This document shows positions 536-27,175 of a stretch of 36,778 nucleotides of DNA, one piece after another. The stretch lies in IMG/VR virus record IMGVR_UViG_3300037043_000339, positions 1 through 36,778 of that record. One strand, 5' to 3'. The notes under the pieces were generated by a model that saw only the letters and a list, made by a program, of their open reading frames with translations, was not told the origin of the DNA and ran no database searches. Origin of the DNA: a virus. Its lineage: Duplodnaviria > Caudoviricetes. Made by a program: the position numbers and the translations under genes. The stretch's first letter is position 1. The number at the start of each line of letters is the position of its first letter.

Positions 536-603
536 AAACATTCATTATTCAACCGAAAAGGGAACTTTACTTCCAAAAAAAGGGAAGTAAAGTTCCCTTT
601 TTT
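536..603 (+). promoter_or_regulatory. Leader element E1: AAACAT-N9-AACCGAAAAGGG box plus terminator-like hairpin
   Basis: Perfect 19-bp inverted repeat 556-574/583-601 with T-run 598-603, lying between P1 and ATG 619. Confidence 0.8.
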
Positions 604-618
604 GTTTACGAGGCCTTT

Positions 619-8400: not shown

Positions 8401-11400
8401 GAGAAAGCATATAACGGTCTTTATAAAATCAACGGTTTTTACATTGAAAAGGGAGTGAAGGCGCCATCGGTACTGGCTCGGCTTGCTGTATTGAAAATAG
8501 GCGGTAACATCATAAAGTATCCGGCCGAATTCAAAAAATCCGTCATCGATGCACTCGGATTCTTTGCCGAATCACCTTCAGCGGAATTCATCGGCGCTTC
8601 AGAACAACAAATCCGCTCAATGCTTGAAAACGCAATAACGGAGAATAAAAATGGACAAACCGAAAACGAAATCATCGGCCAGTACATCCGGACTGTTAGA
8701 TCGAATGCCTCTGGATCCGGAAATACCAATGCTGGAACAGATGGAGGAACTGGCTCAAACAGACGACCAAGCCTTAGAGTGGTTGACGAAGGAAATATAC
8801 CACAACCAACGGAGATTATCCCTGTTGACAGATTCTCCATCAGCGAACACCAACGCCTCGCCGTCAACCTTGCGTTAACGCGATTTTTAGAGAAAAAGAA
8901 AAAAGCATTCCTTCTGGCCGATGGAACAGGCGCCGGGAAAACTCGATCGGAAATCGTCATAGCTTATGAATTGGCAAAAAGGATGAAAAAACCTGCTTTG
9001 ATCACGACGTACGATGATACCGTGATCGAAGGATTCCGGCGTGAAGCGCAGGCATTGGGCATTGACCTGGAAGCATCCAATATCGAGATTGGAACCTACT
9101 ACAATCTTGCTGCAGGCAAAAAAGCCGGAAGCAAGGGGGGCGCGGACTACGCACGACGAGACTACAGCGTCCATATACTTGACGAAGCACACAGGATCAA
9201 AAATGTTGATTCGATCCGTGCTCAGATGTCGAGTGCAGTAAAAAGTGATCATCTTGTCTATGCAACCGCTACACCAATGGATAAACCGCTGCACAGCGCG
9301 TATTTCATGGCTGAGGTGATTGAACAATCCCCGGAAGATGTCGCCAAACAACTCGGTTTTGAAATTGTAAAAACTCCAATGCCTGACGGCAAGATGGAGA
9401 CTTCGGTTATTCCGTTGAACAATATGACGTGGCTTGTCGTATTGGACAATTTGCTGAAAATGAGGGATCAGGCAATTGCCGATGGAGCGATGATCCGCCG
9501 TGAATATCCGTTCTATGGAACGGTCAACAAGAAATTGATTCAGTTTTCACAAGAGCAACGTGACGAACTTGACCAGATTGAACGGTTCTGGAATGGATTT
9601 ATCACAGCAGCTCAAGCGCGAATTCAACCGATGATCGACGCCCTTCAGTATCGGTTCGATCGCGGAGAGATTAATCCTGCAAAATTCTTCAAGGAACTCC
9701 AGATAATCCGCGCATCCAAGAACTTCAAGAAAAATCCGCTGCAGAAATCGATGATGGAAGCGGAGTTCGGTCTATTGCGTGAGTTGTCTTATTGGACCGA
9801 AATGCAGAAACTCCAGATCGTGTTTGATGATGTCATACAGGCATTGGATGAAGGAAAGCGCGTCATCGTTTATGCACAATCGGTGAATCCCGGGACGCTT
9901 GAAGCAATCGACCAGGATCCTTCCAAAGAAAGTTCAATCGCCTATGGCGGATTCCTGAAGACATTAGGTGAAATGCTTTCGGCTAAGAATATCGATTTTG
10001 CGAGAATTTACGGCAGCGACAGCGACAAGGTAACAGAGGCCGACCGGTTTCAGAGGGGGACTTTCAAAGTTGCACTGGCGACAATGGAATCCGGTGGAGT
10101 GGGTATCAACCTGGACGATACATCCGGTGATGCCCCGAGAAAGATGTTTATTGTTACGGCGAACTATGCAGGCGATGCGACTGATCAGGCGATGGGAAGA
10201 GTTTCAAGGATGAACACAAAATCCGCATCGGAAGTGACCTTCTATTTCGCCCCGGAAGCAAAATCCGACCGTCGACGTGGAGTTATTCTCGGAAAGAAGA
10301 TGAATACACTGCGCCGAATACAATCCGGAGAGGATCCCGATCGAGCAACATTCGATGTGCCGATGCCGGCCGAAAGAGGTTCATTGTTCGATCCTGTTCC
10401 GAAATCGGAAGGAGTATGGATTGAACCATACCTTGACGGCTTTGTCATCGTCAAAGGAAACACTGCGAGCGTCAAAGGCGCTCTGAAGAAAATCGGCGGT
10501 GGCCGATACAACGGTACGCTCAAAGGGTGGATATTTCAAAAATCAAAACGGAAAGCACTTGAAAGCGAACTATCCAATGTCCTATCAAAACCATCCGATA
10601 CCGGCTCGGTCGTCAAAGAACCGGCAGCGGATTACCAGGGTGATTTGTTCCGGAAGAATCCTCAAATAGATCTATTCTCGAGTGAAGAAGAGACCTATAA
10701 CGCCGATAAAATTCCCGATACTCTCTCGTCTCGCACAGGTGCTGAGGCAGAATCTGAACAGGAAATCCTTGAATTTGAACATGGTCAGGATGGTATTGTC
10801 GATTCGCAGGATGTCGAAAATGAAATTCCCGGACCGCCAATGGATGAAAACCAAGAGGTCATCGAGGAATCTGAAATCACCGATTTTGGCGAAGTCATTG
10901 GTGATGCGCGGAAACATAAGGCAACGAAAGGAATATCCAGACGAGTTCAAAAAGATGACCGGCCCGGATGGATGAAGAAATATGTCGTTCTTGAAAACAA
11001 AAAGAACGGTCTGTGGGGTGTGTATATTTTGCTTGGCAAGCATGGTCAGGTAAAGAGTGTTACCGGAGATAAGTTCTCGTCTCAAAAAGAAGCGGAATTT
11101 GTATTACCGCTTGTTGAGGTATCGCTCAAGCATCGTGTTTACACAGAATCCAGATCGGATGAAAAACAATCATACGGTATCTTCCGGAAAATCGGTGACC
11201 GCCGTCTGGCATTGGTAAAAGGTGGATTTGCTTCCAGTGAAGAAGCCACTAAACACATGGTGACCAATGCCATGGATATTATCAATTTCCGTTTTCCTTT
11301 CCCGGAGCGGCCGTACCTTGAGAATATCGTCCGCGTCGGTCCCACACGTCTTAAAGGCAACGTCACTCCGAAAATGTTTCAGGATGTATTCGGTTTCCGC

Positions 11401-14400
11401 GGCGGTCAATTCGGTAATTGGGTAACCGATCATGAAGGTCAACAGTCTCTAAATCATGCGTTTGAAGCATTGCTTGACTTGGCTGATGTTCTAAACGTCC
11501 CGCCGAAAGCCATCTCTCTTAACGGAGATCTTGCAATTGCATTCGGCGCCCGGGGTCACGGTGGATTCAATTCTGCAGCAGCTCACTATGAGCCAAGTTG
11601 GATGGTAATCAACCTCACGAAGATCCACGGCGCCGGTGCGCTGGCTCATGAATGGATGCACGCACTCGATCATTACCTTGCCCGATTAGATGGAACTGCC
11701 GGTACTGAGAGAGAGGAATCCGGAAAACTCAAAAATGCTTCAAAAGCAGTCAGTTATGCTTCTCACGGTTTCTTGTGGAAGGACAACAAATCACGTCAGG
11801 AACTTCGCAATGCATTCGTGGCGATGGTGAAAGCCCTGCAGCACAAAGAAGTTGACCGTGAAATAAAAGCGGAAAACGAAGAAAAAGCGCTCACAAGAGC
11901 TATGAAGAATCTGGATTATTATTTGAACGGATTGACCAACACATTCAATACCCGTCATGCCGACACATATAAGGGGAAAGCCAAAAAACCGACCGACGAT
12001 CAGATTAAAGAATGGAACCGGCTTGTTGAAGTTTTGCGGTCCGGTGAAGTCGGGAAAGAACAAACGATTCAATCCGATTCCATGAAACGATGGGGAAACT
12101 ACCGCTCAAGTTATGACGCGCTTGAAAAACTCAATGACCTGTACAAAAAAGTCATTGGCCGGTATTTCTTCACCTCCGATCGAGGCAGCACCGGAAACTA
12201 CATTTATCATGGGATACGTCAGTTAAACGATGCAAAGCGTCGTCTTGCCGAAGCAAATTCCGGAGCAACAGAAAAGAAAACTGTCACGACTGACTTTTAT
12301 TCCAATGCCCGGGATCTTGACCGGAAACGTTCATCTGTCTACTGGAGTTCACCGCATGAGTTACTGGCGCGTGCTTTTGAGACTTTTGTCACGGATAAGT
12401 TGGCAGAAATGCAGCGTCGAAGCGATTACTTGATTTATGGGGCGGATAATAAATTTTATATCAGCCCATTCGGAGATATGAAGCCGTATTTGGAAGGCGA
12501 GGAACGTCCGCATATTCACCGATTGATGCAGAATTTCTTCGATACTATAAAAACCGAAGAAACGTCAAAAGGAGTTGCCATCTACGAACCCCGTGTTCAA
12601 TACGGCTCTCTGGCTTCTCGGTATCAGGATGAATACATATCTCAGCAGCTGCGTCAAGGTCAAACCAGACAATTGGAAGAAAAGCAGCGACGCGACCAGA
12701 AAGAGGCTGAACGACTCAAAAGAGAATCACTGCAAGCCCGGGCGAGTGAATTGTCCGAACGAAAAAAACAATTGCAGCGAGAAATGGAATTCAAGTCGAC
12801 GATCATCGGTCAGGCTGAATTGACCAGCGTAGAAAAGGAACTCAACGAGATCACTTCAAGACTGTCTGACGGACTATTTGAACGGGAGGATGAGCAACAG
12901 TCACTATTCCGGCAGGATCAACCAAGCGGTAACGGTCTCACCAAAAACCGGCTTGACCAACTATTCAAGCCGTTCATCACCGGATTGAAGGATCAATCGA
13001 TTGTGCAGATAGTATCCGGTCCAGAGGATGTTCCGGAGAATCTCCGGAAATACGCATTACCGGGTGTGAAGGCATTTTTCTTACCGATTAAAGGTCGTCC
13101 GACAGTTCACTTCGTGGCATCTGAAATTCGAGATGAGGCGGATGCGTTGAAGACATTTATCCACGAAATGGGCGCTCACTATGGGATCCGTGGATACCTC
13201 GGGTATGAGAAATCCAATGAACTATATCGCGAGCTATGGAACGATTATCAGCAGGAAATTCGAAGTGCAGAGTGGTTTTCACGGTATTCAAACTTCAAAC
13301 AATATGATCCCAATACTTCCCGGGGCCAGATTGCATTGGCAGAAGAATTTGTGGCTCGATCGTTCGCTGAACCTCTGATTGATGAAAGCGGCAACATCGT
13401 AGAACCGTCCTTCCTGGAGAAGATTGTTGCAGCAGTCCGGCAATGGTTACGCGATATCGGAGTGAAGTCAAAGATATCAGATGAAGAAATCAAAGCATTG
13501 TTGTATCGATCGTATGAATTTATCCGCGGAGATCGACCGGGATACTATGGGAAAACCGGTGGATTGCGGTACGCGATCGAACGGAAGAATATTGCGTCGT
13601 CACAGAATTTGCAGAATATGCACGACGTACTGTCTGATTTGTTACCTGAAATTACCGATGCGGCCAAACTCAAAGATCTTGTGCAAAAATATGTTCGCGT
13701 CGGCAAATTCCTGCAGGATGCAGTTAGCCAAAGCCAACTGATAAAATGGATTGATGCGCGGCAAGGACCAATCAATAAAGCCGATGTATTGAAATATATC
13801 CAAGATACAATGTCGGCCAACACTGCCGATATCGGTAATATTGATCCGAATGAAATTGCAAAAAGCGAAGGATTTCCATTGCCCTTATTCCTTTACGCCG
13901 GCGAAAATATCAGCCGCGGTGAAGGTGAAAGACTCATTGATAACCTTTCCATTGCAATCGAAATGGATCAATCCGTCAAGACTCCTGAACAAATCCGGTT
14001 AGCCACAGGATGGTTCAAAGGGCTCGACGGCGATTGGCGTATAGAACTTGATGACAGTAAATCAAGCATTAACGAGGAAATGTGGAACCGGATGATCAGC
14101 AACGAACCGCAGTTTACGGATCCTTTGGATGGAACAGTAAAACCGTATTTCAGCGATGGAGTAGAGAAATTTGAACTGGTGGACAATGGCGGAAACCTGA
14201 TTCAGAACGGATTTTCTACCAGAGATGAAGCAATACAGTGGTTTGCAAAATACGGGGGAGAATTCCGTATACCAAATACCGCATATCTCGACGAATTATT
14301 GGATCACCCGACATTATTTTCACTGTATCCTCAACTACGTGAAATTAAAGTATCTGCCGTACCGCCTGTCCGCGGCCAGCATGGGGCATTTTATGGCGAC

Positions 14401-17400
14401 CGTGCAACAATCGAAATATCCGCCCTACTGGAGAATGCGACACAGATCAAGTCAGTCTTGTTACACGAAGTTCAACATGCAATCCAATATATGGAAGGTT
14501 TTTCAGTTGGTGCGAACTTCTGGAGTGTAGGAGAGTACAAGTATCGAAGATCTGCCGGCGAAATTGAATCCCGTGATGTTCAGAATCGATTAAGACTCGA
14601 TGAATTTAGCAGACAGGATGTTCCTCCTATTAAGCAAACGCTGCTTGATGAAGGAATTCAAGAAGACGAAATCCATTTTGAATATTCCGGAGTATCACAT
14701 TCGATCAAAGAAAATGATTTGATCGATAAAATGAATAATGATGCTGCGCCGTATCGGGAAGTTAAGTTTAACAAATTGAATTGGATTTTCGAATTTGGAA
14801 GCGAAGGGATCGTAAAGACCCCGATCGGTGAAGTGAAAATGGGCAATAATCAGTTCGATAAAATCATAGAAAGAGGAGACAGGAAAAAATACTTCGGATT
14901 GATAAAACCGACGCTTGAATTGCCGCAGATAGTGTTAAAAGATTCCAAAAACGGGACATTATTCATTAAGACATTTACGATGCCTAATGATACCAATAAA
15001 TACTTTGTTTCAGTGATGTATACGATTGATGGAATTGATGTGGTAATCAGTAGCCATCTTAAGAATGAGAATAGATTGAAGCAAGATATCAAGACTGGAA
15101 GGTTGTTATATGTTGCACCGGCGATAGATGTATCCGGATATACGGATCAATCGCAACAACCCTCCACTGATTCCGGCAGTCTTGACAACAGCAATTTACA
15201 AAACCCTGATAACGATGTCAATACCGATGAACTTGATGATGATGTCCGTTTTTCTATCGCGAATAATCCGGCGATTTCCGAAGCAAAACAACGAATAGAT
15301 GCTATGGCGGAAGATCGCCGCGAGTTGTTCCAATCGGACGCAAACGATGCCTATAAGGATCCCCTCAAAGGACTTGGCTGGATCACCCGTCCAAGCGTCG
15401 TTCTTGGGAAGTATAGCAAGTTGCTGCAGCGAGCTCATGACATTGTTATTGCCGAAGAGTCATTCATGCAAGATGCGGTGATGGAAGAATCCAAAGCATT
15501 GATGAAACAGATCAATGAGCATCTTTATTCTGATATGCCTGAGAAAAGCGATCGTACGGGATTTGAAGTACTTGATTTTGTATGGCGTATGAATCAACGG
15601 AAGAAACTCGATTCTTTCTTGAAGATGAGTATTCCTTTGGCAGCGCATCTGAACGCAGTGGGAGGAGAATCCAGTAATTGGGATTTCAAAGAATTTGAAA
15701 TGCGTGCCGGTTTCATTTCGAAAGTTCAATTGGAAAAACTTCGACAATCCAATCCTGGACTCGGTGTCGGGCAGACGATCGAGGTTGTCAATCCGCTTCT
15801 TACTCAAGTCTCCGCAATAAAGGCAGCTGACGAAAAAGGTCTTAAAGATGCCGAGCGGAGGGCTTTCATTGCCGAATACATGGAAACCTCCCCGGTGATG
15901 GATCAACGGATCATTGGTGAAGAACTTTCGGATACCGCGGGAAAACCCGGATATCAATTAAAGCGAGTAGTTTCAAAAGAAATGCAGGAATCGCTTTATA
16001 AAATCTACGAAAACGAATATCCTTCATTTATCCATATTATCGACCAGTTCATCGATCCTCGTCTGGCGAAGAAAACAAAGGAGATAAACGGAATAAAAGT
16101 ACCTACGTTTAACCGCTTTGCACTGGCGGAATTGATGAAACTCAACGATCAGGAATTTCAGGATGTGACCGGCTATACGCCTGATGTTTACATAAGCAGA
16201 TCCTTGATCGGAACAGTGAAGGATCTCGGAAGAGCTATCTTCGGTGGCCAAAAATCTCCGGGCCGGAAATACAAGACCGGCGCAGCGCGTGAAACAGGAA
16301 ACGTTCAGGATATTCTCAAAGGATTCAACATCAGAGCGTTCCAGGCACTGCGGGAGAAAGCTCGTCAGGAATTTGTCCGGATGGCAATGGCAACCTCTGT
16401 TCCTGTTCCGGCAAACGATGCGATTCCGGAAGGATGGGTGAAAATCGAGGATGGGATTAGTACGATCATTCAGGCCATTGAAGCGGCCAAAAAAATGAGA
16501 CTGAAACCGTTCACGAGAGAGATGACTCCGGATGAGCGAAAGAAATACGGAAAAATGGTTCTTCTTCCGGAATGGATAACTGACATAAACCTTGAAAACA
16601 ACACTATCACAATACAACCGGCACATGAAATTAAAAAAAGATTGCGGCCGCAGGATAATCTGATCAGGGACTATGATTTCGGGGAATTTGTCCGTGAAGC
16701 CCGCGCTCTTGAAGGTGAAAAGCGCATGATGCCTAAAAGAGTGCTTGAAATACTCGTCCAGCAATACGATTCCTATAAAGTGCAGAACGGGCTCCTCCGG
16801 ATGATCAACTACCTCGCTCAGGAATCAGCATTATCGCTTCTTGTTTTTCCTGCTACGTTTATGGTGAATTACAACACCAATAAACTATTTACGATGGAAA
16901 AACTCGGTCGGTCTACTACGGCATTAATAGCAAAGGGACTATTAAAAACCGTGGGAGTTAAGACAGATCCTGCAGGTGAGTTTAATTCGTTGAAGGACAT
17001 TGCCGCTATTTCCGCCAAAGGAATGTTTCTTGGGATCCAAAAGCGCATTGGGACCGACTTCGCAAAGCATGTCGAACAGGTTGTACCGGCTGCTCTCTTC
17101 AAGCATTCAACCGTATTGAGCGATGTTGTGGCCAGTGATTTTGACAGTGCAAAAAAGAGCATCAGACGCGGATCTATCGCCGGTGCGATGCTGCAAGTGC
17201 TCGGATATGGAAATATCGACATCAAGAGTAAACAGCGATACGCTCTTTCGTTTTTAACGTCCAGAGCCAATGCCCAATCAAAAAAGCAAGGATTGACCGG
17301 AGATGCTCGAAAAACTTTCGTGAAACAGTGGCTTTCAAATGTTACGATGAAAGACCGCATGGATGCGGTCCGCGCAGCGGAATTTGAATACTTAAACTAT

Positions 17401-18618
17401 AAAGACATTCCGCATGGCTTAACAAGATTTCAACAAAAAGGATGGAGCCGACTGTTTATTCCGTTCATCCGGTTCGGGTATTCGTATTCGCTGAAACAAA
17501 AGGATAAAATTTGGGATAAAGGATTCGTCCAGATGATGCAGGGCGAAACCGTTGATCAGAAAGTTGAAGGTTTTGCCAATGCCTTATGGGCAACGATGAT
17601 TGATTTTGGTTTAATCGGGATCATGTACGGTCTTCTCGGATTCGGTGATGATGAGGATGCACGTCAGATCGTCGGCGCAAGTCAAACGTACGAAGAAACA
17701 CCCGGGGGACAATTACGGAAAAATTCACTGCCAAGCGATCTTAATACTGAAAACAGAGCGAACATCAGCAAGTTGGCGCCACAGTGGTTTGTGGGATGGA
17801 TGCAACAATCCGGCATTGTCGGTGATGATGAGGATGCCTGGTTGAGATTGAGGAACTATCCGATGTTGTATCTTCCTATGCTTGGAATGCTATCAGCAAA
17901 CGATGCGCGAAAACATGGTATCGGTGAAGGTGTTGCAACATATCTTAATGGATTGATCGATCTCGGAAAGGATTTCTTTAATTTCGGTTTTGCAGTCAAA
18001 ACACCGGTCAAAGGTCTTCAATCGATCACCGGTGAGAGAGACAATTGGCTGGACAAATACGGATCGAATATTCCGTTTGTTACCTACACCACGATGAACG
18101 CATTAGATGCGTTTGTTCCATGGGGAAGGCAATCCGATGAAATCGTTTTATTTCTGGATCCGGTGCGCAGGCGGACATCAGAAAGCCGTACGCTGGATTA
18201 CAATACCGAAATTGGAGAGCAGTTTAAGAATGGATTGGTGATCGGTCATATACCCGGCATCGTTCATCGCATGATCACTGAAGGTGAGGATCTTCCTCCA
18301 ACCGGAAGGGTGGAGACGGTATCATTACGGCCCTCACCCTCTGAAAAGCCAGAGACAACAATGAAGCGTCAATTGGCGATATCACTGCTTTCTCAGGAAT
18401 CACCGAACGCCAGATTGTATATGCAGGAACGGAAAGATCGTTTGGGAGTATTCAAACCGACACCGAGAATTGCATTCCTTGAGCCTCGGGAACCGAATTA
18501 TAGCCCCGCAAGGGAGTTGCTGCGATTGCTCGGTGGAGTTAATATCAAGCCCGTTAATAACAAAGAATATGAAAGGGCGATAACAAATAATAATTTGAAT
18601 AATCAGGAGAACGAATAA
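2473..18618 (+). CDS. Giant polyvalent (probably virion-injected) protein, 5381 aa
   Basis: Uninterrupted 16.1-kb ORF. Recognisable motifs: DdrB/ParB-like (ARYAV..LQPSH..QPKNR..GAP..QGNGR), MutS-I-like, RadC JAB (HNHPSG..PSRED), SF2 helicase (DGTGAGKT, DEAH, ATAT, QAMGRVSR), zincin HEWMH, LPD1-like, HEMGAH, LPD23-like HEVQH, PBECR-like. Confidence 0.9.
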   Translation: MGKEKVFNPSRRSLYDQMKDHYNLPEYDKFESYLDDDNNRKALFDDLSGQSLLGDVKDFDEFESLIKPRVSPELRSEFISQSAAEFKKDIASGPSPFEPDKTQYQSPIKQEAAARETQGSPVLQQAMLDTALMESGMLPQVQSEINKEIQDQEAADKLLNTFREAKIRTLIEEVEDLSSRQDIKGNKEAESYVQSVNDELAAYTPEEVESVRKKMVVERSQSYAKKRINELNAQKGKSVWTAIQDGDFGDPNRLFTGRLKEKSDLIKSQRMHLDEKNLLQEAVDAPNKSQGKWNDFVKGIGSAIGIDLVPFVGDAVELEKFSRIKELTDKKQDERTEDEQAVVDAYAALQNVKNNSELTPIFYNIGKGATEMTPYALEFAATSGVYSTAKNVMQHGIIKLIGRETIKEVLENAAKKNVIGLVNKATLKGVASLGAGITQSLANPLGIAVDFEQRGIPLLSLGMSKEGEIVERNAIGSPDESITKLLKSIGVNAAEYVSERFGYAVEKPTEMLAKMAIGKFLAKYGQNATEKQLEAIAKKLGWNGIIAEFAEEFLNKPMQTAIESGKIEFMSPEESLETLGIVAVPGLGGKAVKYSAKAFNALGSLPKLDPSELKNDKPQSGEESKEQTVEHGNPEPGGSADNTPTGDEINPPQKSEPLQPAAAPEPEKKVQLKPDERAEFIYPNLLEQLNQESEDAPISVSSVISMVPELQSGDRKSNVKTASKLIQRLHQEGLAVDNVFKKKKEDPEQEWKDKAAELGISFVGMQSVPGKDSIPLFTDPETGSTFVKADGETLQQALDRKREQFKQSKPVTPENSETPEAVVPPVVPTDKDADIKPDGSVVVKGDDEGLFPGEKLTLKPFVRPELPFKNIDVNSPEKILDYNARIQDILSARYKGYNDVLDNRIKELDSEIAKSVNGSALSKALEHEQIKLKIEKENWEKQYGDLIEERFVEHRESILDEATKRGIVFIDESEENEFVDDFLLQIGDDNATAEKNGEKAIKDVFDSIVQKYLPKDEEEPVIPPVETKPQEPETKEPSGETKSGKKETIPPADIAQVSEDILDKTWVKRRSEGQYVQDNNTFTRQEPLSESAGKVAFGKNTSVVFAKEVIAPARYAVIDVSLLQPSHISGSPNKLHFIPEAQPKNRSQSESNRNQNQEMAENLDPEQILVGKTAYVGAPTVNDRGEIIQGNGRGGTARIYWNQYPDDPKGLKSTIKEYASVFGLDEKQIDAIKHPVVVRMFTGNDNQAITLGQYEVSDLESVANKTTKATAMSRKMSDEDVQKIAEMIQKADSGEFDKPIGEIIQNAGLPIVDTLISGGAINADKRETYFSRDGRISPDGVESIKNILVNFLFRGGNTNVPELFRKTPANFQNAIERSIHFLLSSKAPINTEIQNAIMMYDGFIKSGMGSILDFVRQPGLTEAAPIDKYGVDSATIALMIEQPQRELIAKFKRYFLNSNGTPGDMFSEGNPAMSKRDSYTAFDPFFTQAKQYGLPEDNNKFFGSEDVDVSVFEPKSSYKAMKAKYPGTVFLIRKGENYIARGQDAIDIKNALGMKPSKANTYEIPASAIQQILPRLSKAGLRVGVADQIEESDSQIELGFDSPETKSFTTTDGESIRYQNASGEARYKRSPGNRLAESPSTRKLDKNEHQVISRLYRKSPFKFFGANERINGPKDVAVLFRQLETESVEHCFAVHVREDGKTVIQHLSTGLFNSTLVSQVQFQDLIERFGTKELYFVHNHPSGNLEPSREDLGIHTQIEKSLGGKVILHDSIIINLKSGKYSTFSPNFGQNAKTKDSTQGIEGKIPFKTLSFTRQALLKDVELTKVSQPESIAAFITSSRFSSGKKWQLLSMNPQNQIIGRFCLTSIPNFNSEESIKNVVNEASLFTIRSGGISCALVANIGDAPKLAENGTFNHLRKSLEEKGINLLDIVGVEPSSDIFESSLDNGAQDVIKPGAKTNINTLSEPSSEYASASFNEKAYNGLYKINGFYIEKGVKAPSVLARLAVLKIGGNIIKYPAEFKKSVIDALGFFAESPSAEFIGASEQQIRSMLENAITENKNGQTENEIIGQYIRTVRSNASGSGNTNAGTDGGTGSNRRPSLRVVDEGNIPQPTEIIPVDRFSISEHQRLAVNLALTRFLEKKKKAFLLADGTGAGKTRSEIVIAYELAKRMKKPALITTYDDTVIEGFRREAQALGIDLEASNIEIGTYYNLAAGKKAGSKGGADYARRDYSVHILDEAHRIKNVDSIRAQMSSAVKSDHLVYATATPMDKPLHSAYFMAEVIEQSPEDVAKQLGFEIVKTPMPDGKMETSVIPLNNMTWLVVLDNLLKMRDQAIADGAMIRREYPFYGTVNKKLIQFSQEQRDELDQIERFWNGFITAAQARIQPMIDALQYRFDRGEINPAKFFKELQIIRASKNFKKNPLQKSMMEAEFGLLRELSYWTEMQKLQIVFDDVIQALDEGKRVIVYAQSVNPGTLEAIDQDPSKESSIAYGGFLKTLGEMLSAKNIDFARIYGSDSDKVTEADRFQRGTFKVALATMESGGVGINLDDTSGDAPRKMFIVTANYAGDATDQAMGRVSRMNTKSASEVTFYFAPEAKSDRRRGVILGKKMNTLRRIQSGEDPDRATFDVPMPAERGSLFDPVPKSEGVWIEPYLDGFVIVKGNTASVKGALKKIGGGRYNGTLKGWIFQKSKRKALESELSNVLSKPSDTGSVVKEPAADYQGDLFRKNPQIDLFSSEEETYNADKIPDTLSSRTGAEAESEQEILEFEHGQDGIVDSQDVENEIPGPPMDENQEVIEESEITDFGEVIGDARKHKATKGISRRVQKDDRPGWMKKYVVLENKKNGLWGVYILLGKHGQVKSVTGDKFSSQKEAEFVLPLVEVSLKHRVYTESRSDEKQSYGIFRKIGDRRLALVKGGFASSEEATKHMVTNAMDIINFRFPFPERPYLENIVRVGPTRLKGNVTPKMFQDVFGFRGGQFGNWVTDHEGQQSLNHAFEALLDLADVLNVPPKAISLNGDLAIAFGARGHGGFNSAAAHYEPSWMVINLTKIHGAGALAHEWMHALDHYLARLDGTAGTEREESGKLKNASKAVSYASHGFLWKDNKSRQELRNAFVAMVKALQHKEVDREIKAENEEKALTRAMKNLDYYLNGLTNTFNTRHADTYKGKAKKPTDDQIKEWNRLVEVLRSGEVGKEQTIQSDSMKRWGNYRSSYDALEKLNDLYKKVIGRYFFTSDRGSTGNYIYHGIRQLNDAKRRLAEANSGATEKKTVTTDFYSNARDLDRKRSSVYWSSPHELLARAFETFVTDKLAEMQRRSDYLIYGADNKFYISPFGDMKPYLEGEERPHIHRLMQNFFDTIKTEETSKGVAIYEPRVQYGSLASRYQDEYISQQLRQGQTRQLEEKQRRDQKEAERLKRESLQARASELSERKKQLQREMEFKSTIIGQAELTSVEKELNEITSRLSDGLFEREDEQQSLFRQDQPSGNGLTKNRLDQLFKPFITGLKDQSIVQIVSGPEDVPENLRKYALPGVKAFFLPIKGRPTVHFVASEIRDEADALKTFIHEMGAHYGIRGYLGYEKSNELYRELWNDYQQEIRSAEWFSRYSNFKQYDPNTSRGQIALAEEFVARSFAEPLIDESGNIVEPSFLEKIVAAVRQWLRDIGVKSKISDEEIKALLYRSYEFIRGDRPGYYGKTGGLRYAIERKNIASSQNLQNMHDVLSDLLPEITDAAKLKDLVQKYVRVGKFLQDAVSQSQLIKWIDARQGPINKADVLKYIQDTMSANTADIGNIDPNEIAKSEGFPLPLFLYAGENISRGEGERLIDNLSIAIEMDQSVKTPEQIRLATGWFKGLDGDWRIELDDSKSSINEEMWNRMISNEPQFTDPLDGTVKPYFSDGVEKFELVDNGGNLIQNGFSTRDEAIQWFAKYGGEFRIPNTAYLDELLDHPTLFSLYPQLREIKVSAVPPVRGQHGAFYGDRATIEISALLENATQIKSVLLHEVQHAIQYMEGFSVGANFWSVGEYKYRRSAGEIESRDVQNRLRLDEFSRQDVPPIKQTLLDEGIQEDEIHFEYSGVSHSIKENDLIDKMNNDAAPYREVKFNKLNWIFEFGSEGIVKTPIGEVKMGNNQFDKIIERGDRKKYFGLIKPTLELPQIVLKDSKNGTLFIKTFTMPNDTNKYFVSVMYTIDGIDVVISSHLKNENRLKQDIKTGRLLYVAPAIDVSGYTDQSQQPSTDSGSLDNSNLQNPDNDVNTDELDDDVRFSIANNPAISEAKQRIDAMAEDRRELFQSDANDAYKDPLKGLGWITRPSVVLGKYSKLLQRAHDIVIAEESFMQDAVMEESKALMKQINEHLYSDMPEKSDRTGFEVLDFVWRMNQRKKLDSFLKMSIPLAAHLNAVGGESSNWDFKEFEMRAGFISKVQLEKLRQSNPGLGVGQTIEVVNPLLTQVSAIKAADEKGLKDAERRAFIAEYMETSPVMDQRIIGEELSDTAGKPGYQLKRVVSKEMQESLYKIYENEYPSFIHIIDQFIDPRLAKKTKEINGIKVPTFNRFALAELMKLNDQEFQDVTGYTPDVYISRSLIGTVKDLGRAIFGGQKSPGRKYKTGAARETGNVQDILKGFNIRAFQALREKARQEFVRMAMATSVPVPANDAIPEGWVKIEDGISTIIQAIEAAKKMRLKPFTREMTPDERKKYGKMVLLPEWITDINLENNTITIQPAHEIKKRLRPQDNLIRDYDFGEFVREARALEGEKRMMPKRVLEILVQQYDSYKVQNGLLRMINYLAQESALSLLVFPATFMVNYNTNKLFTMEKLGRSTTALIAKGLLKTVGVKTDPAGEFNSLKDIAAISAKGMFLGIQKRIGTDFAKHVEQVVPAALFKHSTVLSDVVASDFDSAKKSIRRGSIAGAMLQVLGYGNIDIKSKQRYALSFLTSRANAQSKKQGLTGDARKTFVKQWLSNVTMKDRMDAVRAAEFEYLNYKDIPHGLTRFQQKGWSRLFIPFIRFGYSYSLKQKDKIWDKGFVQMMQGETVDQKVEGFANALWATMIDFGLIGIMYGLLGFGDDEDARQIVGASQTYEETPGGQLRKNSLPSDLNTENRANISKLAPQWFVGWMQQSGIVGDDEDAWLRLRNYPMLYLPMLGMLSANDARKHGIGEGVATYLNGLIDLGKDFFNFGFAVKTPVKGLQSITGERDNWLDKYGSNIPFVTYTTMNALDAFVPWGRQSDEIVLFLDPVRRRTSESRTLDYNTEIGEQFKNGLVIGHIPGIVHRMITEGEDLPPTGRVETVSLRPSPSEKPETTMKRQLAISLLSQESPNARLYMQERKDRLGVFKPTPRIAFLEPREPNYSPARELLRLLGGVNIKPVNNKEYERAITNNNLNNQENE
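5800..6260 (+). other. Domain of giant protein: DdrB-like ParB-superfamily domain
   Basis: PARYAVIDVSLLQPSH...EAQPKNRS...GAPTVNDRGEIIQGNGRG. Boundaries approximate. Confidence 0.75.
7024..7245 (+). other. Domain of giant protein: MutS domain-I-like
   Basis: YKAMKAKYPGTVFLIRKGENYIARGQDA..I..ALG..L.KAGLRVGVADQ matches the MutS N-terminal pattern. Boundaries approximate. Confidence 0.7.
7480..8270 (+). other. Domain of giant protein: RadC-type JAB domain plus a degenerate second copy
   Basis: INGPKDVA..E..HNHPSGNLEPSREDL..LHDSIII (HNHPS at 7684-7698). The second unit (VSQPESIA..MNPQNQIIG..GINLLDIV) lacks the HxH metal ligands. Confidence 0.75.
8830..10330 (+). other. Domain of giant protein: SF2 helicase, Strawberry-notch-like
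   Basis: FLLADGTGAGKTR (Walker A, ~8908-8946), DEAH (9181-9192), ATATP, GGVGINLDD, QAMGRVSR. Confidence 0.85.
10876..12560 (+). other. Domains of giant protein: LPD5-like start, zincin metallopeptidase (HEWMH) and LPD1-like region
   Basis: ITDFGEVIGDARK; FGFRGGQFGNW..AFGARG..AAHYEP..INLTK..GAGALAHEWMHALD (HEWMH at 11647-11661); YWSSPHELLARAFE. Confidence 0.75.
13990..14600 (+). other. Domain of giant protein: LPD23-like zincin module
   Basis: TGWFKGLDGDWRIELDD..LLDHPTLFSLYPQL..LLHEVQHAIQ..EGF..YRRSAGEIESRDVQNR. Confidence 0.75.
14740..15115 (+). other. Domain of giant protein: PBECR (Barnase/EndoU/ColicinE5-D/RelE-like) RNase-fold module
   Basis: VKTPIGEVKMGNNQF.K..R..YFGLIKPTLE.P..V..LFIKTF..YFVSV..VISSH. 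Confidence 0.6.
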
Positions 18619-19248: not shown

Positions 19249-21312
19249 ATGCGTCCTGCGGTTCAATCCGTCATATCGCAGAATTCCAAACGATGGAATA
19301 CTCTTCTTCAACCCTATGATCCGATACTTGGCATAGGATCCCCAAAGCCACGCTTACAAATAAAAATTGATGATCAGTCCACTGTATCTATTCCCGTAGA
19401 GATGGGGCAACATGCTGCTGTTGAGTTTATTCAAAAAAGCGGATCAATGGAAAAAGCAGCTGCGGCCGTCGGAAAAACCATTGAAGAAGTACGGAACAAT
19501 TTCGCCAGAGTGCGCTGTAAATATGATTTTGAGTTTTGGGCTGCGTCGTGTGTTACAATTAAGGCAAAGCGACCAAAAAAAGATGCCTTAGTCGATGGCA
19601 CCGAGGGTGATACTGGCATTGATAAGATGACGGTAAAAAAGAAGTTCGTTCTAAACCGGCCGCAACGGAAGATGCTGGCAGTTCTTGAACGGATGAGGCT
19701 TTCGGGCGTTTCTATTCGGGTTATTCTTCTGAAAGCGCGGCAATGGGGAGGATCTACACTTGTGCAAATCTACATTTCTTGGTTGCAATTGTTTCACCGA
19801 ACGGATTGGAATGCTATGATCGTTGCCGATGCAAAGGAAAAGGCATTGAATATTCGCTCGATGTATAAACTGGTCGTTCAAGATCATCCAGCTGATGTGA
19901 TCGAGGGCGTTACCGGTAAATTACAGATGATGCCTTGGGAACAGACACATAATTTCAAATATATTCCCGGCCGCGGTAATCTCATCGGTGTAGCGTCAGT
20001 TCAAAATCCGGATGCACCTCGATCGTTTACGACACACCTGCTGCACTTATCAGAAGTCGGTCTATGGAAATCAACACCTTCGGTCAACGCGGAATCACTT
20101 GCTACTTCTTTGGAAGGGGGTATTGTCGACGGACCGTATACACTGTGTGTTATGGAATCAACGGCGAAAGGTGTCGGTACGTATTTCCACCGGGAATGGC
20201 AAAAAGCAATCAATAAAAAATCGAATTATGAACCGGTATTCGTCTCATGGTTTGAAGATCCGAATGATTATAACGTACCGGTCAAAAGAGCTGCGGAATT
20301 CATTGTTACCTGGAGTGATTACGAATGGTTCTTGTGGGAAAGCGGCGCGACGATTGAACATATTGCATGGTACAGGAAAAAGAGAGTAAACTTCGATTCT
20401 GACTGGCAGATGCAAAGTGAATATCCGACAAATCCTCAAGAAGCATTTCAATCTACCGGAAACCGAATATTTGCTCCGAATATTGTCATTGAAGCGAGAA
20501 AGACCTGCAAAGATCCGATTGCAGTTGGAAATCTCAATGCCGATACGATTAAAGGACCGGGCGCATTCAAAAACATTGAATTTGTTCCTGCAGCGAACGG
20601 TTACCTTTCCATATGGAATTATCCTAATAATTTTGGAATTGAACGCTCCGGAAAATTATATACGAATCGTTACTGTGCTTTTCTGGATACCGGTGGTAAG
20701 TCAAAGGAATCAGACTATAACTCTATGTCTGTGCTGGATCGCATTCTGACGATGTACGGAGGAGTTCCGTATGTAGCGGCTGAATTCCATGGTCACTTCG
20801 ATCCTGATCTGGTGGCCTGGTATGCAGCAAGAATTGCACGATGGTATGATAATGCATTATTGGCAGTTGAAGTCAACAAATTATACCAGGATAGCGGAGA
20901 CGATACTCGCGGTCATGAAGCCAATTACGGTGTTACGGTATTGGACGAAATAAAAGATTATTACGAAAATCTGTATTACCGGATTCAACCTGAGCAGATC
21001 CAAGAGAAGTGGAACGGTGTTTTAGGTTTTCATACGAACAAAGAGACCAAACCTATGATCATCAAAGAATTGAACGCAGCGTTGCGCGACCATGGGTATG
21101 AGGAGCGTAATATTGCCGCCTGTGATGAATTCGATTATTATGAACAGAAAAAAGACGGTTCTATGGGTGCTGTGGAAGGGCAGCATGACGATCGTGTGAT
21201 ATCGAGAGCCGGAGCGCTTTGGCTTTCAGGGAAAATGGATCCGGTGGAGGAGATAGACATACAACGGAAATCCGGAACTGCAAAGCCCGGGGGGTTTGGG
21301 ATATTTCCGTAA
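19249..21312 (+). CDS. terL: Terminase large subunit
   Basis: LKARQWGGST (Walker A), LLHLSEVG (Walker B), ESTAKG coupling motif, and RNase H-like FLDTGG ... HDDRV. Confidence 0.95.
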   Translation: MRPAVQSVISQNSKRWNTLLQPYDPILGIGSPKPRLQIKIDDQSTVSIPVEMGQHAAVEFIQKSGSMEKAAAAVGKTIEEVRNNFARVRCKYDFEFWAASCVTIKAKRPKKDALVDGTEGDTGIDKMTVKKKFVLNRPQRKMLAVLERMRLSGVSIRVILLKARQWGGSTLVQIYISWLQLFHRTDWNAMIVADAKEKALNIRSMYKLVVQDHPADVIEGVTGKLQMMPWEQTHNFKYIPGRGNLIGVASVQNPDAPRSFTTHLLHLSEVGLWKSTPSVNAESLATSLEGGIVDGPYTLCVMESTAKGVGTYFHREWQKAINKKSNYEPVFVSWFEDPNDYNVPVKRAAEFIVTWSDYEWFLWESGATIEHIAWYRKKRVNFDSDWQMQSEYPTNPQEAFQSTGNRIFAPNIVIEARKTCKDPIAVGNLNADTIKGPGAFKNIEFVPAANGYLSIWNYPNNFGIERSGKLYTNRYCAFLDTGGKSKESDYNSMSVLDRILTMYGGVPYVAAEFHGHFDPDLVAWYAARIARWYDNALLAVEVNKLYQDSGDDTRGHEANYGVTVLDEIKDYYENLYYRIQPEQIQEKWNGVLGFHTNKETKPMIIKELNAALRDHGYEERNIAACDEFDYYEQKKDGSMGAVEGQHDDRVISRAGALWLSGKMDPVEEIDIQRKSGTAKPGGFGIFP

Positions 21313-21320
21313 AATTGTTG

Positions 21321-21359
21321 AAGATTTTTCTTGACTTGAACACCATCGGCTATTATAAT
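21321..21359 (+). promoter_or_regulatory. Promoter P2 (TTGACT-17 bp-TATAAT) with conserved spacer CACCATCGGC
   Basis: TTGACT at 21331-21336, TATAAT at 21354-21359. 21321-21355 matches 24651-24685 at 34 of 35 nt. Confidence 0.85.
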
Positions 21360-21370
21360 CACAACACCTT

Positions 21371-21490
21371 ATGAAGCGAATAATTGAAAATATCTTCTAT
21401 CGAACGATCGAGCAACGGGCATTTTCCGGATCGACGCCGTTTCATATATTCCAGCAGAACTTACTGAAAGCGTTGTGGTATGGCAAATAA
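21371..21490 (+). CDS. Possible 39-aa near-leaderless peptide (MKRIIENIFYRTIEQRAFSGSTPFHIFQQNLLKALWYGK)
   Basis: The ATG is about 5 nt after the predicted P2 start site, and the ORF overlaps the next start codon. It is below the ORF-track size cut-off and has no recognisable family. Confidence 0.3.
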   Translation: MKRIIENIFYRTIEQRAFSGSTPFHIFQQNLLKALWYGK

Positions 21491-21677
21491 TGAAATAGAC
21501 ATACCACGGTTAACGCAAATTGAGGCGACAAAGCTGATAAAGGCTTTAGCCAGAACCAAAAACGTTGCGGAAAAAACTGGTGAAGATCAACTGGTCATTA
21601 TTCGCTTTAATCCACGACATAAAATGTGGTCAACCATGTTTTCAGAATCTCACCAATGGGTGAAAGTTTTGACATAG
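21480..21677 (+). CDS. Small hypothetical protein (65 aa), candidate regulator
   Basis: Fills the gap between P2 and element E2. Helix plus beta-hairpin-like pattern. No strong RBS. Confidence 0.6.
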   Translation: MANNEIDIPRLTQIEATKLIKALARTKNVAEKTGEDQLVIIRFNPRHKMWSTMFSESHQWVKVLT

Positions 21678-21694
21678 AATAACGAAATTGTTGT

Positions 21695-21753
21695 AAACAT
21701 TTTTTAACTAACCGAAAAGGGCGTAGTCATTCAATATGACGAACGCCCTTTTT
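21695..21753 (+). promoter_or_regulatory. Leader element E2: AAACAT-N9-AACCGAAAAGGG box plus terminator-like hairpin
   Basis: AAAAGGGCGT (21715-24) pairs with ACGCCCTTTT (21743-52). Upper stem GTCAT/ATGAC. T-rich tail. Confidence 0.8.
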
Positions 21754-21785
21754 ATTTTTGCACTACTTTTTGAGGAGATACAATT

Positions 21786-22295
21786 ATGAGATCCATTCTT
21801 TCTTTCGGACAAAAACTGGTTTTTGTTCTTGTCACGGCCTTGATGTTGGTGCCGGTCATCAATCAAGATGCAATCGCGCAGGATGTATACAAGCCGCTTC
21901 CGGCCAACGTTTTTCCTTCCGGTCCGGAATCATTTACCGGTGTGCAATACGTGAACAGTCAGGTTTACCGATCGCCAATTATCGACGCCTGGAATTTTGA
22001 TTCCCTTCAATACTTGCTTCATTTTACCGATTCGGTGAACATCTCCTCGATCAAAATTATTCGATATGCGTACAGTACCGCCACTGTCGGAGACACTTCG
22101 TCAACACTCGGGACAGTAGTAAGTACCAATAGCGGAGGTAAGACAGTCGTCATTGTCGGCATTGACAGTGTGTTCACCAATAAGAATGCGGCAGCCGGAT
22201 ATCAGCGTCTCTTGATAACGTTTAATTCAAGCGGCAATCCATCGGGCGGTAATATCGGTAAGAAGTTTTGGCCATACATGCACGGATATAAGTGA
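21786..22295 (+). CDS. Exported protein with Sec signal peptide, function unknown
   Basis: GAGGAG RBS. Signal-like MRSILSFGQKLVFVLVTALMLVPVINQDAIA|QD, followed by a beta-rich Ser/Thr-rich mature region. Confidence 0.75.
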   Translation: MRSILSFGQKLVFVLVTALMLVPVINQDAIAQDVYKPLPANVFPSGPESFTGVQYVNSQVYRSPIIDAWNFDSLQYLLHFTDSVNISSIKIIRYAYSTATVGDTSSTLGTVVSTNSGGKTVVIVGIDSVFTNKNAAAGYQRLLITFNSSGNPSGGNIGKKFWPYMHGYK

Positions 22296-22314: not shown

Positions 22315-24228
22315 ATGACCGAACAAAAATCGACATCGTTCATAAATTCTCAAGGGTTCGTGGTGCGGAATCAGCGCCTCGAACTCCTTGAGGAGGCACG
22401 TATTGCCTGGGACGGACTACGTGACTATCGGACCCGCAGAGCTCGAAGCCGCGATTACATGCGTGGTAAACCCAAAGAAACGATGATCGATCCCGATACA
22501 AAAGAAACCGTCAGCGAAGATGAATATATCGTAGCGCAAGGACGGATCCCATTCAAGGTTAACCGCATCAGCCCCGTCATCCGCAACCTAAAAGGACAAT
22601 TCAGGCAGTCAAAAACTTCCCGCATGGCATACGGCGTAAATCGCGATGATACCGATGCTTCGGACATGATGACTGAAGGCCTGAATATGGCCTGCAGAGT
22701 TAATCAAACACAGGAAACCGATGCTGACGCCGTTGAGGAATCGTTCATTGGCGGGATGTATGGCTGGAAAACGGGATACAAATGGAATCCGAAACTCAAA
22801 AGGGAAGAAATTTCGGTTGATCTGGTCGACGGAACTCGCCTTTTTTACAATCAGGATATCTCTGATCGGCGATTGACAGGATTAAGAATTATCGGAGAGA
22901 TACACGACGTACCGTTGAATGAAGTTATCATGCGCTTTGCAAAAAGCAAGGCGGATGAGAAGTTCATCCGGGATATGTACGCGGAAGTTCAGCAAGCAGC
23001 ATTGTATCCGTACGAATATATGCAATACGGATTCAATCTGAAGGATAGTCTGGATTTCTATACGACTCCGAATTGGAATCTTGCACGCGTGATCGAGGTC
23101 TGGAAACTTGAATACAAGTGGCGGACATTTGTCCATGATCCAATGACCGGATCGTACGATGAATTGGATGTGACGCAGCAGCAAATAGATCTCGTCAATC
23201 AACAGCGTGAACTTGAGGCGCTTGTATTGCAGCAGGAACCGCCAAAACCTATCACCATTAAGCAGCAGTTTGATGCGGTCTGGCGATGCTATTTTATGAA
23301 TCCCCTCGGATATATTCTTCATGAATCAGATACACCTTACTGGCACGAATCCCACCCCTATACACTCGGCCTTGCTCAATTTATCGACGGTGAAGTGTGG
23401 GGACTGGTTGAAGATATCATTGATCAACAGCGTCTTTCAAACCGATTGGTAAGTGCGATCGACAATATGTTCGGATCCAGCGCAAAGGGCGTTTTGCTTA
23501 TTCCCGAAGATTCGATTCCAGCCGGCATGAAGCCTGCGGATTTTGCGTCGGAGTGGACGAAATTCAACGGCGTTATTGCTTACAAGGCAAAGCATGGGAC
23601 TCCACCACCGGAACAGGTATCAATGAATTCCATTCCCACCGGTATTTTCAACTGGCTCACGATGATCTCCGGCGAGATGAAAGAAGTATCAGGCGTTACC
23701 GGTGCACAAATGGGATTGGAACCTCAAAGCGGAACTCCCGCGATGATGTACGACGCGCAAATATCACAAGGTCAGTTAACGACGAGGGATTTTTTTGATA
23801 GTTTTTCTGAAGCACGGCGTCAACGTGATCTGATGATCGTGAAATTAATCGCGCAGTATTACGATGAACCGAAAATGCTGGCAGTATCAGGACGTCGACC
23901 GGATGGACAAAAATTGATCAAATATGATCCTGCCCGTGTTCGTCAATTGGATTTTGATATTGTCATCAGCGATACACCGGACACTCCGGCGAACCGGCAA
24001 TTGATGGAGACCTATCTTGTGGATCTGATGAATAACAATCGTTTGACGTTCCGGCAGTATTTGCAGCTCTCCAGTCATCCGAAGGCAGATTTGATACTTC
24101 GAGTGATTGAAAGCTCAAATCCACTGCTGGCAAATCATCAAATGTCGCCGCAGGATGTTGCAGCATTGCAATTGCAGGCTCAAGCCGGAAATCCCGATGC
24201 CGTGGCCTTTATGAATCAAGCAGCATAA
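22315..24228 (+). CDS. Portal protein (P22-like podoviral type)
   Basis: 637 aa, after terL. Motifs GRIPFKVNRISPVIRNLKGQFRQ, GLVEDIIDQQRLSNR, SAKGVLL, EVSGVTGAQMG, and a Gln-rich tail. Confidence 0.9.
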   Translation: MTEQKSTSFINSQGFVVRNQRLELLEEARIAWDGLRDYRTRRARSRDYMRGKPKETMIDPDTKETVSEDEYIVAQGRIPFKVNRISPVIRNLKGQFRQSKTSRMAYGVNRDDTDASDMMTEGLNMACRVNQTQETDADAVEESFIGGMYGWKTGYKWNPKLKREEISVDLVDGTRLFYNQDISDRRLTGLRIIGEIHDVPLNEVIMRFAKSKADEKFIRDMYAEVQQAALYPYEYMQYGFNLKDSLDFYTTPNWNLARVIEVWKLEYKWRTFVHDPMTGSYDELDVTQQQIDLVNQQRELEALVLQQEPPKPITIKQQFDAVWRCYFMNPLGYILHESDTPYWHESHPYTLGLAQFIDGEVWGLVEDIIDQQRLSNRLVSAIDNMFGSSAKGVLLIPEDSIPAGMKPADFASEWTKFNGVIAYKAKHGTPPPEQVSMNSIPTGIFNWLTMISGEMKEVSGVTGAQMGLEPQSGTPAMMYDAQISQGQLTTRDFFDSFSEARRQRDLMIVKLIAQYYDEPKMLAVSGRRPDGQKLIKYDPARVRQLDFDIVISDTPDTPANRQLMETYLVDLMNNNRLTFRQYLQLSSHPKADLILRVIESSNPLLANHQMSPQDVAALQLQAQAGNPDAVAFMNQAA

Positions 24229-24650: not shown

Positions 24651-24689
24651 AAGATTTTTCTTGACTTGCACACCATCGGCTATTAGCAT
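24651..24689 (+). promoter_or_regulatory. Promoter P3 (TTGACT-17 bp-TAGCAT) with conserved spacer CACCATCGGC
   Basis: TTGACT at 24661-24666, TAGCAT at 24684-24689. Near-identical to P2. Confidence 0.8.
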
Positions 24690-24697
24690 TGGACTAC

Positions 24698-24715
24698 TTA
24701 ATTAACCGATAAGGG
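24698..24715 (+). promoter_or_regulatory. Partial element E4 (TTAATTAACCGATAAGGG), no hairpin
   Basis: AACCGATAAGGG at 24704-24715 matches the E1-E3 box at 11 of 12 nt. No complementary CCCTT follows before ATG 24738. Confidence 0.55.
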
Positions 24716-25828: not shown

Positions 25829-25892
25829 AAACATATTTTAATCAACCGAAAAGGGTAACTGAGCCAGAAATGGCCTGTTACCCTTTTTTTTT
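25829..25892 (+). promoter_or_regulatory. Leader element E3: AAACAT-N9-AACCGAAAAGGG box plus terminator-like hairpin
   Basis: AAAAGGGTAAC (25849-59) pairs with GTTACCCTTTT (25877-87). Upper stem GCCA-GAAA-TGGC. T9 tract at 25884-25892. Confidence 0.85.
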
Positions 25893-27123: not shown

Positions 27124-27175
27124 AGGTGAATCCCTCTCTCCTTTAATAAGGGGGAGGGGGATACCTATGTTTTTT
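27124..27175 (+). terminator. Intrinsic terminator after the major capsid gene
   Basis: TCCCTCTCTCCTT-taat-AAGGGGGAGGGGGA stem (with G-U pairs), flanked by AGGT/ACCT and followed by TGTTTTTT. Confidence 0.65.

Follow-up and report, generated by a model that had tools for sequence, protein, structure and literature searches.

The question raised by this locus is what two tiny open reading frames, ORF39 and ORF65, do for a phage that encloses them between a strong promoter, P2, and a terminator, E2, and whether the larger of the two governs the late genes around it. The window, by which we mean the whole stretch of DNA that was analyzed, is a linear virus record of 36,778 bases with a CheckV completeness of 56% (about 65 kb full size). 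It carries the virion module of a podovirus-like phage, with terS, terL, a P22-like portal and an SU10-type major capsid protein (MCP), and the unit formed by P2, ORF65 and E2 sits in the head module with terL on one side and the portal on the other. Five groundwater sequencing runs contain 84-100% of the sampled words from the window, and three of them may be its source; no RNA runs are listed among the sequencing runs carrying window sequence. The closest GenBank terminases are those of Bacteroides phages (35-36% identity), and the host group, itself little studied, is probably related to Bacteroidota.

The reading that we favor, tentatively and at a little under an even chance, is the one proposed in the initial annotation, that ORF65 is a box-binding antiterminator; it would act at each late-operon terminator. 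If this is true, a 60-65-aa protein of a new family would serve as a compact, non-processive timer of late genes; to our knowledge only a handful of antiterminators have been described in phages, and the textbook examples (N, Q, P7, put) act processively. The system is compact (one gene, a 25-nt box and sigma70 promoters), and because variants of the protein and of the box exist in several phages they might provide an orthogonal ON switch for synthetic biology. Even if ORF65 is not the switch, the family to which it belongs is real, has no name so far and keeps a fixed regulatory setting in phages. The order P2, ORF39, ORF65, E2 described at the outset was confirmed at the positions given in Table 1.

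Table 1. Features of the P2 unit and of the related promoters, boxes and terminators in the window
Feature	Position	Strand	Remarks
P1, same promoter type as P2	491..519	+	Directly ahead of E1, no gene between
E1, box and 20-bp terminator hairpin	538..606	+	Gates operon running to terL
Large terminase (terL)	19249..21312	+	phrog_2, E 2.1e-18; upstream neighbor of P2 unit
P2, sigma70-type promoter (TTGACT-17-TATAAT)	21331..21359	+	11/12 consensus matches; spacer common to P1 and P3
ORF39, near-leaderless leader ORF	21371..21490	+	39 aa; overlaps ORF65 by 11 nt
ORF65, conserved small protein without named family	21480..21677	+	65 aa; homologs, silent changes, structure models; candidate box-binding regulator
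E2 box, ACAT-N9-AACCGAAAAGGG	21697..21721	+	Box 3' end is 5' arm of terminator stem
E2, intrinsic-terminator-like hairpin and U-run	21714..21760 (hairpin 21714-21753)	+	z -4.64; 0/200 shuffles as stable
169-aa gene, first behind E2	21786..22295	+	L001 copy 62% identical; absent from L003
P22-like portal	22315..24228	+	PF16510, E 3.9e-49; gated by E2
P3, weaker -10	24661..24689	+	Ahead of probable scaffold gene
Box variant AACCGATAAGGG in P3 leader, without terminator	24704..24715	+	L001 keeps AACCGATAA at same place
E3, box and terminator hairpin	25831..25892	+	Ahead of major capsid gene

The ORF65 family and its genomic neighborhoods

A homology search with the single sequence matched ORF65 only to itself, and homologs were reached by terL synteny first and by profile searches afterwards. 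In each of the two closest terL loci, L001 (61%) and L003 (53%), a 64-aa ORF lies right after terL. The L001 protein is 48% identical to ORF65 (E 3e-20), and the L003 protein aligns through L001 only (E 4e-6; the direct comparison gives E 0.028). A profile built from these three sequences (window, L001 and L003) retrieved 14 proteins among 1.84 billion representatives and later searches added 3, which brings the family to 18 sequences including those of the window and L003 (17 homologs). Its members have 55-93 aa, 2-7 arginines and a net charge of 0 to +4. The DNA context is known for 4/18 members (the window, L001, L003 and genome G359). Family-profile searches of genomes returned only G359 each time (1/401, 1/401, 1/55, 1/277 and 1/401); a scan of viral contigs with three other homologs gave no match, and a portal scan of viral contigs gave one distant locus. 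No Pfam family was found for any of 15 members at E<=0.1, and the family had no match in PHROGs, PDB sequences, the ESM Atlas or GenBank phages (query P0005). Open-access word searches of the literature, without supplements, found neither the family nor the box. Missing database matches do not prove novelty.

In the contigs of a soil relative, all of the listed ORF65 differences (7/7) are silent, including two at first codon positions (8 of the contig's 11 differences are listed, at a depth of 2.5-3, and 4/7 were also seen in a second run of the same study). Judged by these substitutions, ORF65 is a real gene under purifying selection. A protein identical to ORF65 is encoded on a contig of 105,961 bases, as against the CheckV estimate of ~65 kb for the window genome; the two figures would fit either a genome of greater size or a prophage flanked by host DNA.

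The initial annotation had suggested checking whether homologs of the 65-aa protein occur together with the boxed terminator across genomes. Box and terminator follow the gene in 3/3 loci with downstream DNA, versus neither gene nor boxed terminator in 89 more distant terL loci (many redundant; at least 1 kb of downstream DNA is present in 81 of all 93 terL rows), a distribution that suggests an antiterminator. In L001 the 12-nt box and terminator come behind the homolog after an extra gene, and in L003 a variant box and terminator lie directly behind it. A family profile run over 96 loci and the window matches only the window, L001 and L003/L088 (one contig), and a relaxed box and hairpin pattern run over the same set matches the same loci plus L095 and L096. 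The association was seen within a single lineage: in a quick tree of 30 of 82 rows, the terL sequences of the window, L001 and L003 group together as one clade (SH-aLRT 96), and because of this the three co-occurring loci count as one event. Shared ancestry alone would explain the co-occurrence of ORF65 and the boxed terminator. In terms of sequence and gene order, ORF65 belongs to a family of small phage genes that has no name and sits in a conserved unit of promoter, gene and boxed terminator.

Several observations were made at the edges of this comparison. The extra ORF of L001 (3151-3408, 85 aa), between the ORF65 homolog and E2, has an N-terminus that we take to be twin-arginine-like. G359 is silent on the box because its contig ends inside the homolog; no terL, portal or boxed terminator was found in the G359 genome, and terL was not found in 277 genomes of its order. 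At 280-590 and 1272-1820, L100 (G359:C145) carries two tandem P-type promoters ~280 nt apart, with a run of 10-nt direct repeats between them, and, on the other strand, what is presumably, by the look of the sequences, a HicA/HicB-like gene pair. A scan of viral contigs with the box and terminator pattern gave 3 matches, L001 and two giant-virus-like contigs. In these two, L095 (10001-10061) and L096, a similar ACAT...CGAAAAGGG hairpin stands after a gene end without an ORF65 homolog, and the contigs are identical around the match. A scan with one pattern for the box by itself gave a single match, L006, which falls within coding sequence of an unrelated phage and was rejected as chance.

Promoter, leader ORF and boxed terminators

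Among the 14 promoter-like sites between 18000 and 28000, P2 scores highest and the remaining 13 score 9; it is linked with P3 by a 59-nt repeat and has counterparts in L001, L003 and G359. The ATG of ORF39 lies 11 nt behind the -10 hexamer of P2. ORF39 is absent from L001 and L003, where the ORF65 homolog itself starts 14 and 8 nt, respectively, behind the -10 hexamer, and G359 has an unrelated ORF of 27 aa, which begins 7 nt behind a same-type promoter and ends 3 nt short of the homolog. The first ATG is found 7-14 nt behind the -10 of a sigma70-type promoter in 4/4 loci with DNA. Leaderless or near-leaderless starts in 4/4 loci, together with a short ORF in front in 2/4, fit translational coupling.

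The exact sequence of ORF39 was not found in a 15-billion collection. The soil relative departs from the window sequence after 21390, and, within the first 30 of its 72 loose letters, the final 13 match 21465-21477 at 12/13 (by eye); 17 letters appear to replace 74, and therefore the soil ORF39 would be 57 nt shorter, in the same frame and without a stop. We rejected ORF39 as a conserved protein, as it is missing in two relatives, apparently shorter in frame in one and replaced by an unrelated leader ORF in another. It is likely, from these comparisons, a translational-coupling leader for ORF65, as had been suggested; the unrelated leader ORF of G359 and the shorter in-frame version of the soil relative support this role indirectly. 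The remark that ORF65 has no clear ribosome binding site also stands, with a Shine-Dalgarno match absent for both small ORFs. Their pairing energies are +1.8 and -2.1 kcal/mol, versus -5.9 to -9.3 for 6/10 other starts; terL, the portal and the gene at 27820 are likewise without a Shine-Dalgarno match, and the MCP value was taken from a start inside E3.

E1, E2 and E3 are the three strongest plus-strand elements of hairpin and U-run in the window, four others reaching only -12.8 to -13.4 kcal/mol. A consensus terminator scan missed E2, probably owing to its loop rule, and Rfam gave no match in the window at E<=1. The succession of P1 and E1 without an intervening gene is an attenuator layout. 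The 12-nt box occurs in 3 copies in the window as against 0.015 expected (200 shuffles), and the P-type spacer pattern occurs in 3 copies and in 0 shuffles; these shuffle figures are flattering, because both patterns were written from the copies counted. No difference is listed at the E2 box in the relative contigs X9 and X10.

The box reaches into the 5' arm of the hairpin in 5/5 elements (E1-E3 and those of L001 and L003), with its 3' end forming the 5' arm of the lower stem. The segment AAAAGGG of the box is the A-run that pairs with the U-run. When pairing of the box was forbidden in folding calculations on the five elements, the stem beside the U-run was lost and the fold energy rose by 13.7-18.5 kcal/mol. 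The stem sequences differ among the E elements while the box stays the same; ACAT precedes the box core by 9 nt in the E elements and by 12 nt in L001, and the distance from CGA to the U-run is 34-37 nt in 4/5 elements and 44 in E1. The box core is kept where no terminator needs it, because L001 retains AACCGATAA behind its P3. On its own the box folds weakly, at -0.6 to -3.0 kcal/mol and with a hairpin of 2-3 bp at most, which rules out a stable stand-alone hairpin and is why no RAT-like hairpin is seen. Around the start of P3 (24672-24711) the minus-strand promoter spacer (TAGCCGAT) matches the box core (TAACCGAT) at 7/8 positions as an inverted repeat, probably by chance because the match is poor in P1 and L001.

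Comparison with known systems and proposed mechanism

The geometry of the box resembles that of the RAT elements. As described in the available text of PMC4347634, each terminator under BglG-SacY-LicT control has a conserved element of 20-30 nt of its own, which overlaps its 5' arm. The phage boxes likewise overlap the 5' arm in 5/5 elements, one per terminator, and the presence of such a box at each strong terminator suggests, by analogy, an antiterminator. Unlike BglG and SacY, ORF65 has no CAT or PRD domain (Pfam, 15 members, E<=0.1) and is too short for a PRD; unlike the RAT systems, the box forms a hairpin of 2-3 bp at most, and phage head and packaging genes are gated, not sugar operons.

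The likeness to lambda N drawn in the initial annotation holds for gene order: in the window, L001 and L003 a small phage gene stands between its promoter and the first terminator that follows. It does not extend to the protein. Lambda N is a disordered protein, whereas ORF65 is predicted to be folded (alpha/beta, mean pLDDT 80-83), with 2-7 arginines across the family and a net charge of 0 to +4. The box has a loop sequence of the GAAAA/GAUAA type that we take to be boxB-like (lambda nut); unlike nut, the box overlaps each terminator instead of being loaded far upstream, and it is the late genes that are gated. N and HK022 Nun use an arginine-rich motif (PMC4124055, in the part available), and a lambda-N-like motif of this kind was rejected for ORF65 on its arginine content and predicted fold. 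Xp10 P7, which is similar in size and binds RNA polymerase, opens the intrinsic terminators that precede late genes; according to the accessible portion of PMC6624301 it plugs the RNA exit channel, and no nucleic-acid box is described for P7 there. ORF65 shows no sequence match to P7 and no fold match among those listed. ORF65 was not filed under N, BglG/SacY or Q because the defining protein features of these fail. Analogy suggests that its unit works like RAT-type antitermination rather than by processive control, the two modes being distinguished in the available part of PMC8191782.

As a box-binding antiterminator, ORF65 would act as follows. Transcripts from P2 would stop at E2, and because of this ORF65 would be made first; its output would be low, at a rate set by leaderless initiation, and in the window phage ribosomes would enter at ORF39 and then initiate again at ORF65. 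Above a threshold ORF65 would occupy the box, the simplest target being the nascent RNA, and keep the lower stem beside the U-run from forming, so that host RNA polymerase could continue into the operons for portal, capsid and terminase. E1, E2 and E3 would be opened one by one, as in a timer, and the terminator-less box behind P3 may be a further ORF65 site (for loading, or for control of scaffold translation). The positive feedback that had been proposed is not supported as a direct effect of E2 read-through, because ORF65 lies upstream of E2. Only read-through of E1, over ~21 kb that include a single weak hairpin at 6459, could add ORF65 mRNA, and on that mRNA ORF65 would be without a ribosome site.

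Some of the evidence speaks against an antiterminator. The P3 box stands without a terminator in two genomes, and a model of occlusion has no need of it there; the net charge of ORF65 is low; the AAAAGGG part of the box is simply the partner of the U-run; and L095 and L096 carry a similar motif and hairpin without the gene. As the window is only 56% complete by CheckV, the missing part of the genome may encode another antiterminator.

Alternative roles for ORF65

The alternative that survives best, unlikely as we consider it, is that a Q-like factor from the missing part of the genome binds the promoter spacer and opens the P/E units, and that ORF65 is a passenger of the P2-E2 transcript with another job. 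The binding site of Q lies between -35 and -10. As in lambda Q, Q21 and BrrG, a strong sigma70 promoter with a conserved spacer is followed by a short transcript, a terminator and the late genes. Over the 17 spacer positions, differences number 1-4 within the window, 2 within L001 and 4-6 between the window and L001; the G359 spacers differ at 6 positions among themselves and at 8-11 from those of the window and L001. Spacers more alike within a genome than between genomes could reflect a DNA-binding factor, which could be the real switch, and they could equally be a repressor operator or the product of local duplication. There is probably, on sequence, a further P-type promoter copy outside the window: in run X7 (near-identical phage DNA) the contig of record 13 matches 31 nt of P3 (24655-24685), preceded by 204 unlike letters. 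This copy and the incompleteness of the window favor the Q-like factor; a promoter-pattern scan of viral contigs gave 0 matches. Q recognizes a site within late promoters (10.1101/2024.11.20.624540, in the text available). However, Q-type control is processive and needs no box per terminator (PMC8191782, available part), yet every strong terminator here has one. In contrast to lambda Q, several promoters share the layout and every terminator comes with a box of its own. No Q-family protein was found in the window, and ORF65 and its homologs have no such Pfam or PHROG match.

We regard as distinctly improbable that ORF65 is a DNA-binding dimer on the box (CC-N6-GG) or the spacer that represses or road-blocks the late promoters, its own included, until another signal removes it. 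The box does lie just downstream of P1 and P3, the usual position for a repressor, and is quasi-palindromic (ACC-N6-GGT in E3 and L001), but the P3 box of L001 and the box of L003 break CC-N6-GG, and the terminators would still need another opener. Leaderless translation is typical of phage repressors, e.g. lambda cI. Two structure models (pLDDT 80.0 and 82.9) agree on an N-terminal arm, a helix at 13-33 and a beta-hairpin. R25 is basic in 15/16 sequences and K27 in 16/16, both on the predicted helix, where positions 18 and 21 are K/R in 11/16 sequences each, and these basic residues count in favor of the box-binding antiterminator; F43 and S57 are nearly fixed. The basic helix pointed out in the initial annotation is upheld by the conserved R25 and K27. 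Its aromatic strand (IRFNPRHKMWS) was dropped as a conserved feature, as only F43 is nearly conserved, the segment is mostly a loop insertion and the tryptophan lies in this insertion, which is absent from most homologs.

With VIA, the MADS-box chain 7nb0 ranks first for both models (Z 4.5, rmsd 4.6-4.8 over the two models: 4.8 with 49 residues aligned for the first, and Z 3.9, rmsd 4.6 with 48 aligned for the second), tied with unrelated rows, and Foldseek places 4 MADS entries in the first 12 rows for the second model (E 0.65-3.7). That MADS-box chains top the weak fold lists of both models favors a DNA-binding repressor; against it, none of the fold matches reaches significance (Z stays under 5, rmsd spans 4.6-8.4 and the best Foldseek E is 0.65, with nothing at E<=0.001 in PDB or BFVD), and unrelated folds tie with them. 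PF00319 (SRF-TF) matched 0/3 records (window, L001 and L003) and 0/5 family members at E<=10. Like the MADS-box proteins SRF, MCM1, MEF2 and SEP3, ORF65 is predicted to have an arm, a long basic helix and a beta-hairpin, in the same order and at similar length, and the CC-N6-GG geometry of the phage box is that of the CArG box consensus (PMC12447436, available part). Unlike them, its helix is shorter, PF00319 gives no match, the scores are below significance and the middle of the box is not all A/T. As predicted from the models, the resemblance is a weak lead only.

There is a slim chance that ORF65 is unrelated to the box and is an accessory gene in its own promoter-terminator unit, such as a packaging helper or a TerI-like superinfection-exclusion protein. 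Small terminase-adjacent genes can be defense proteins, TerI in Listeria being the precedent in the available text of 10.1101/2025.02.27.640495. The slot is variable, L001 adding its 85-aa gene inside the unit, and the co-occurrence with the box is confined to one clade; yet ORF65 is fixed across terminases only 53-61% identical while flanking genes come and go, and the G359 homolog stands again behind the same promoter type in a different neighborhood.

Slimmer still is the chance that the box serves a phage sigma factor as -10 element at a late promoter, with ORF65 a helper or unrelated and transcripts escaping the terminator because they start inside the hairpin: ACCGA(A/T)AA has what we take to be a sigma28-type -10 likeness and the box stands without a terminator at P3 in two genomes, but the upstream ACAT is missing at P3 and its spacing elsewhere is either 9 or 12 nt, there would be no point in a sigma70 promoter that leads straight into E1 without an intervening gene, and no sigma factor was found in the window (Pfam, PHROG). 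The longest shot is that ORF65 is a phage MADS-like dimer which, on CArG-shaped box DNA ~35-45 bp upstream of the termination point, lets the polymerase pass; if true, a transcription-factor fold specific to eukaryotes would have a relative or analogue in a prokaryotic virus, and termination would be controlled in a new way.

A few features of the neighboring genes were also recorded. The 169-aa gene behind E2 encodes a hydrophobic, signal-peptide-like N-terminus (judged by eye). The E1-gated operon includes a 5,381-aa polyvalent protein (2473-18618) with matches to ddrB-ParB, MutS_I, RadC, SNF2-like, LPD1, LPD14, LPD23 and PBECR2. The start of the MCP as listed (25870) falls within the E3 hairpin, and the true start is likely the ATG at 25918, behind a GAAAGGA element. 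After the capsid gene, at 27130-27162, there is a 15-bp hairpin with an offset U-run and without a box, which may lower expression stepwise or stabilize the mRNA.
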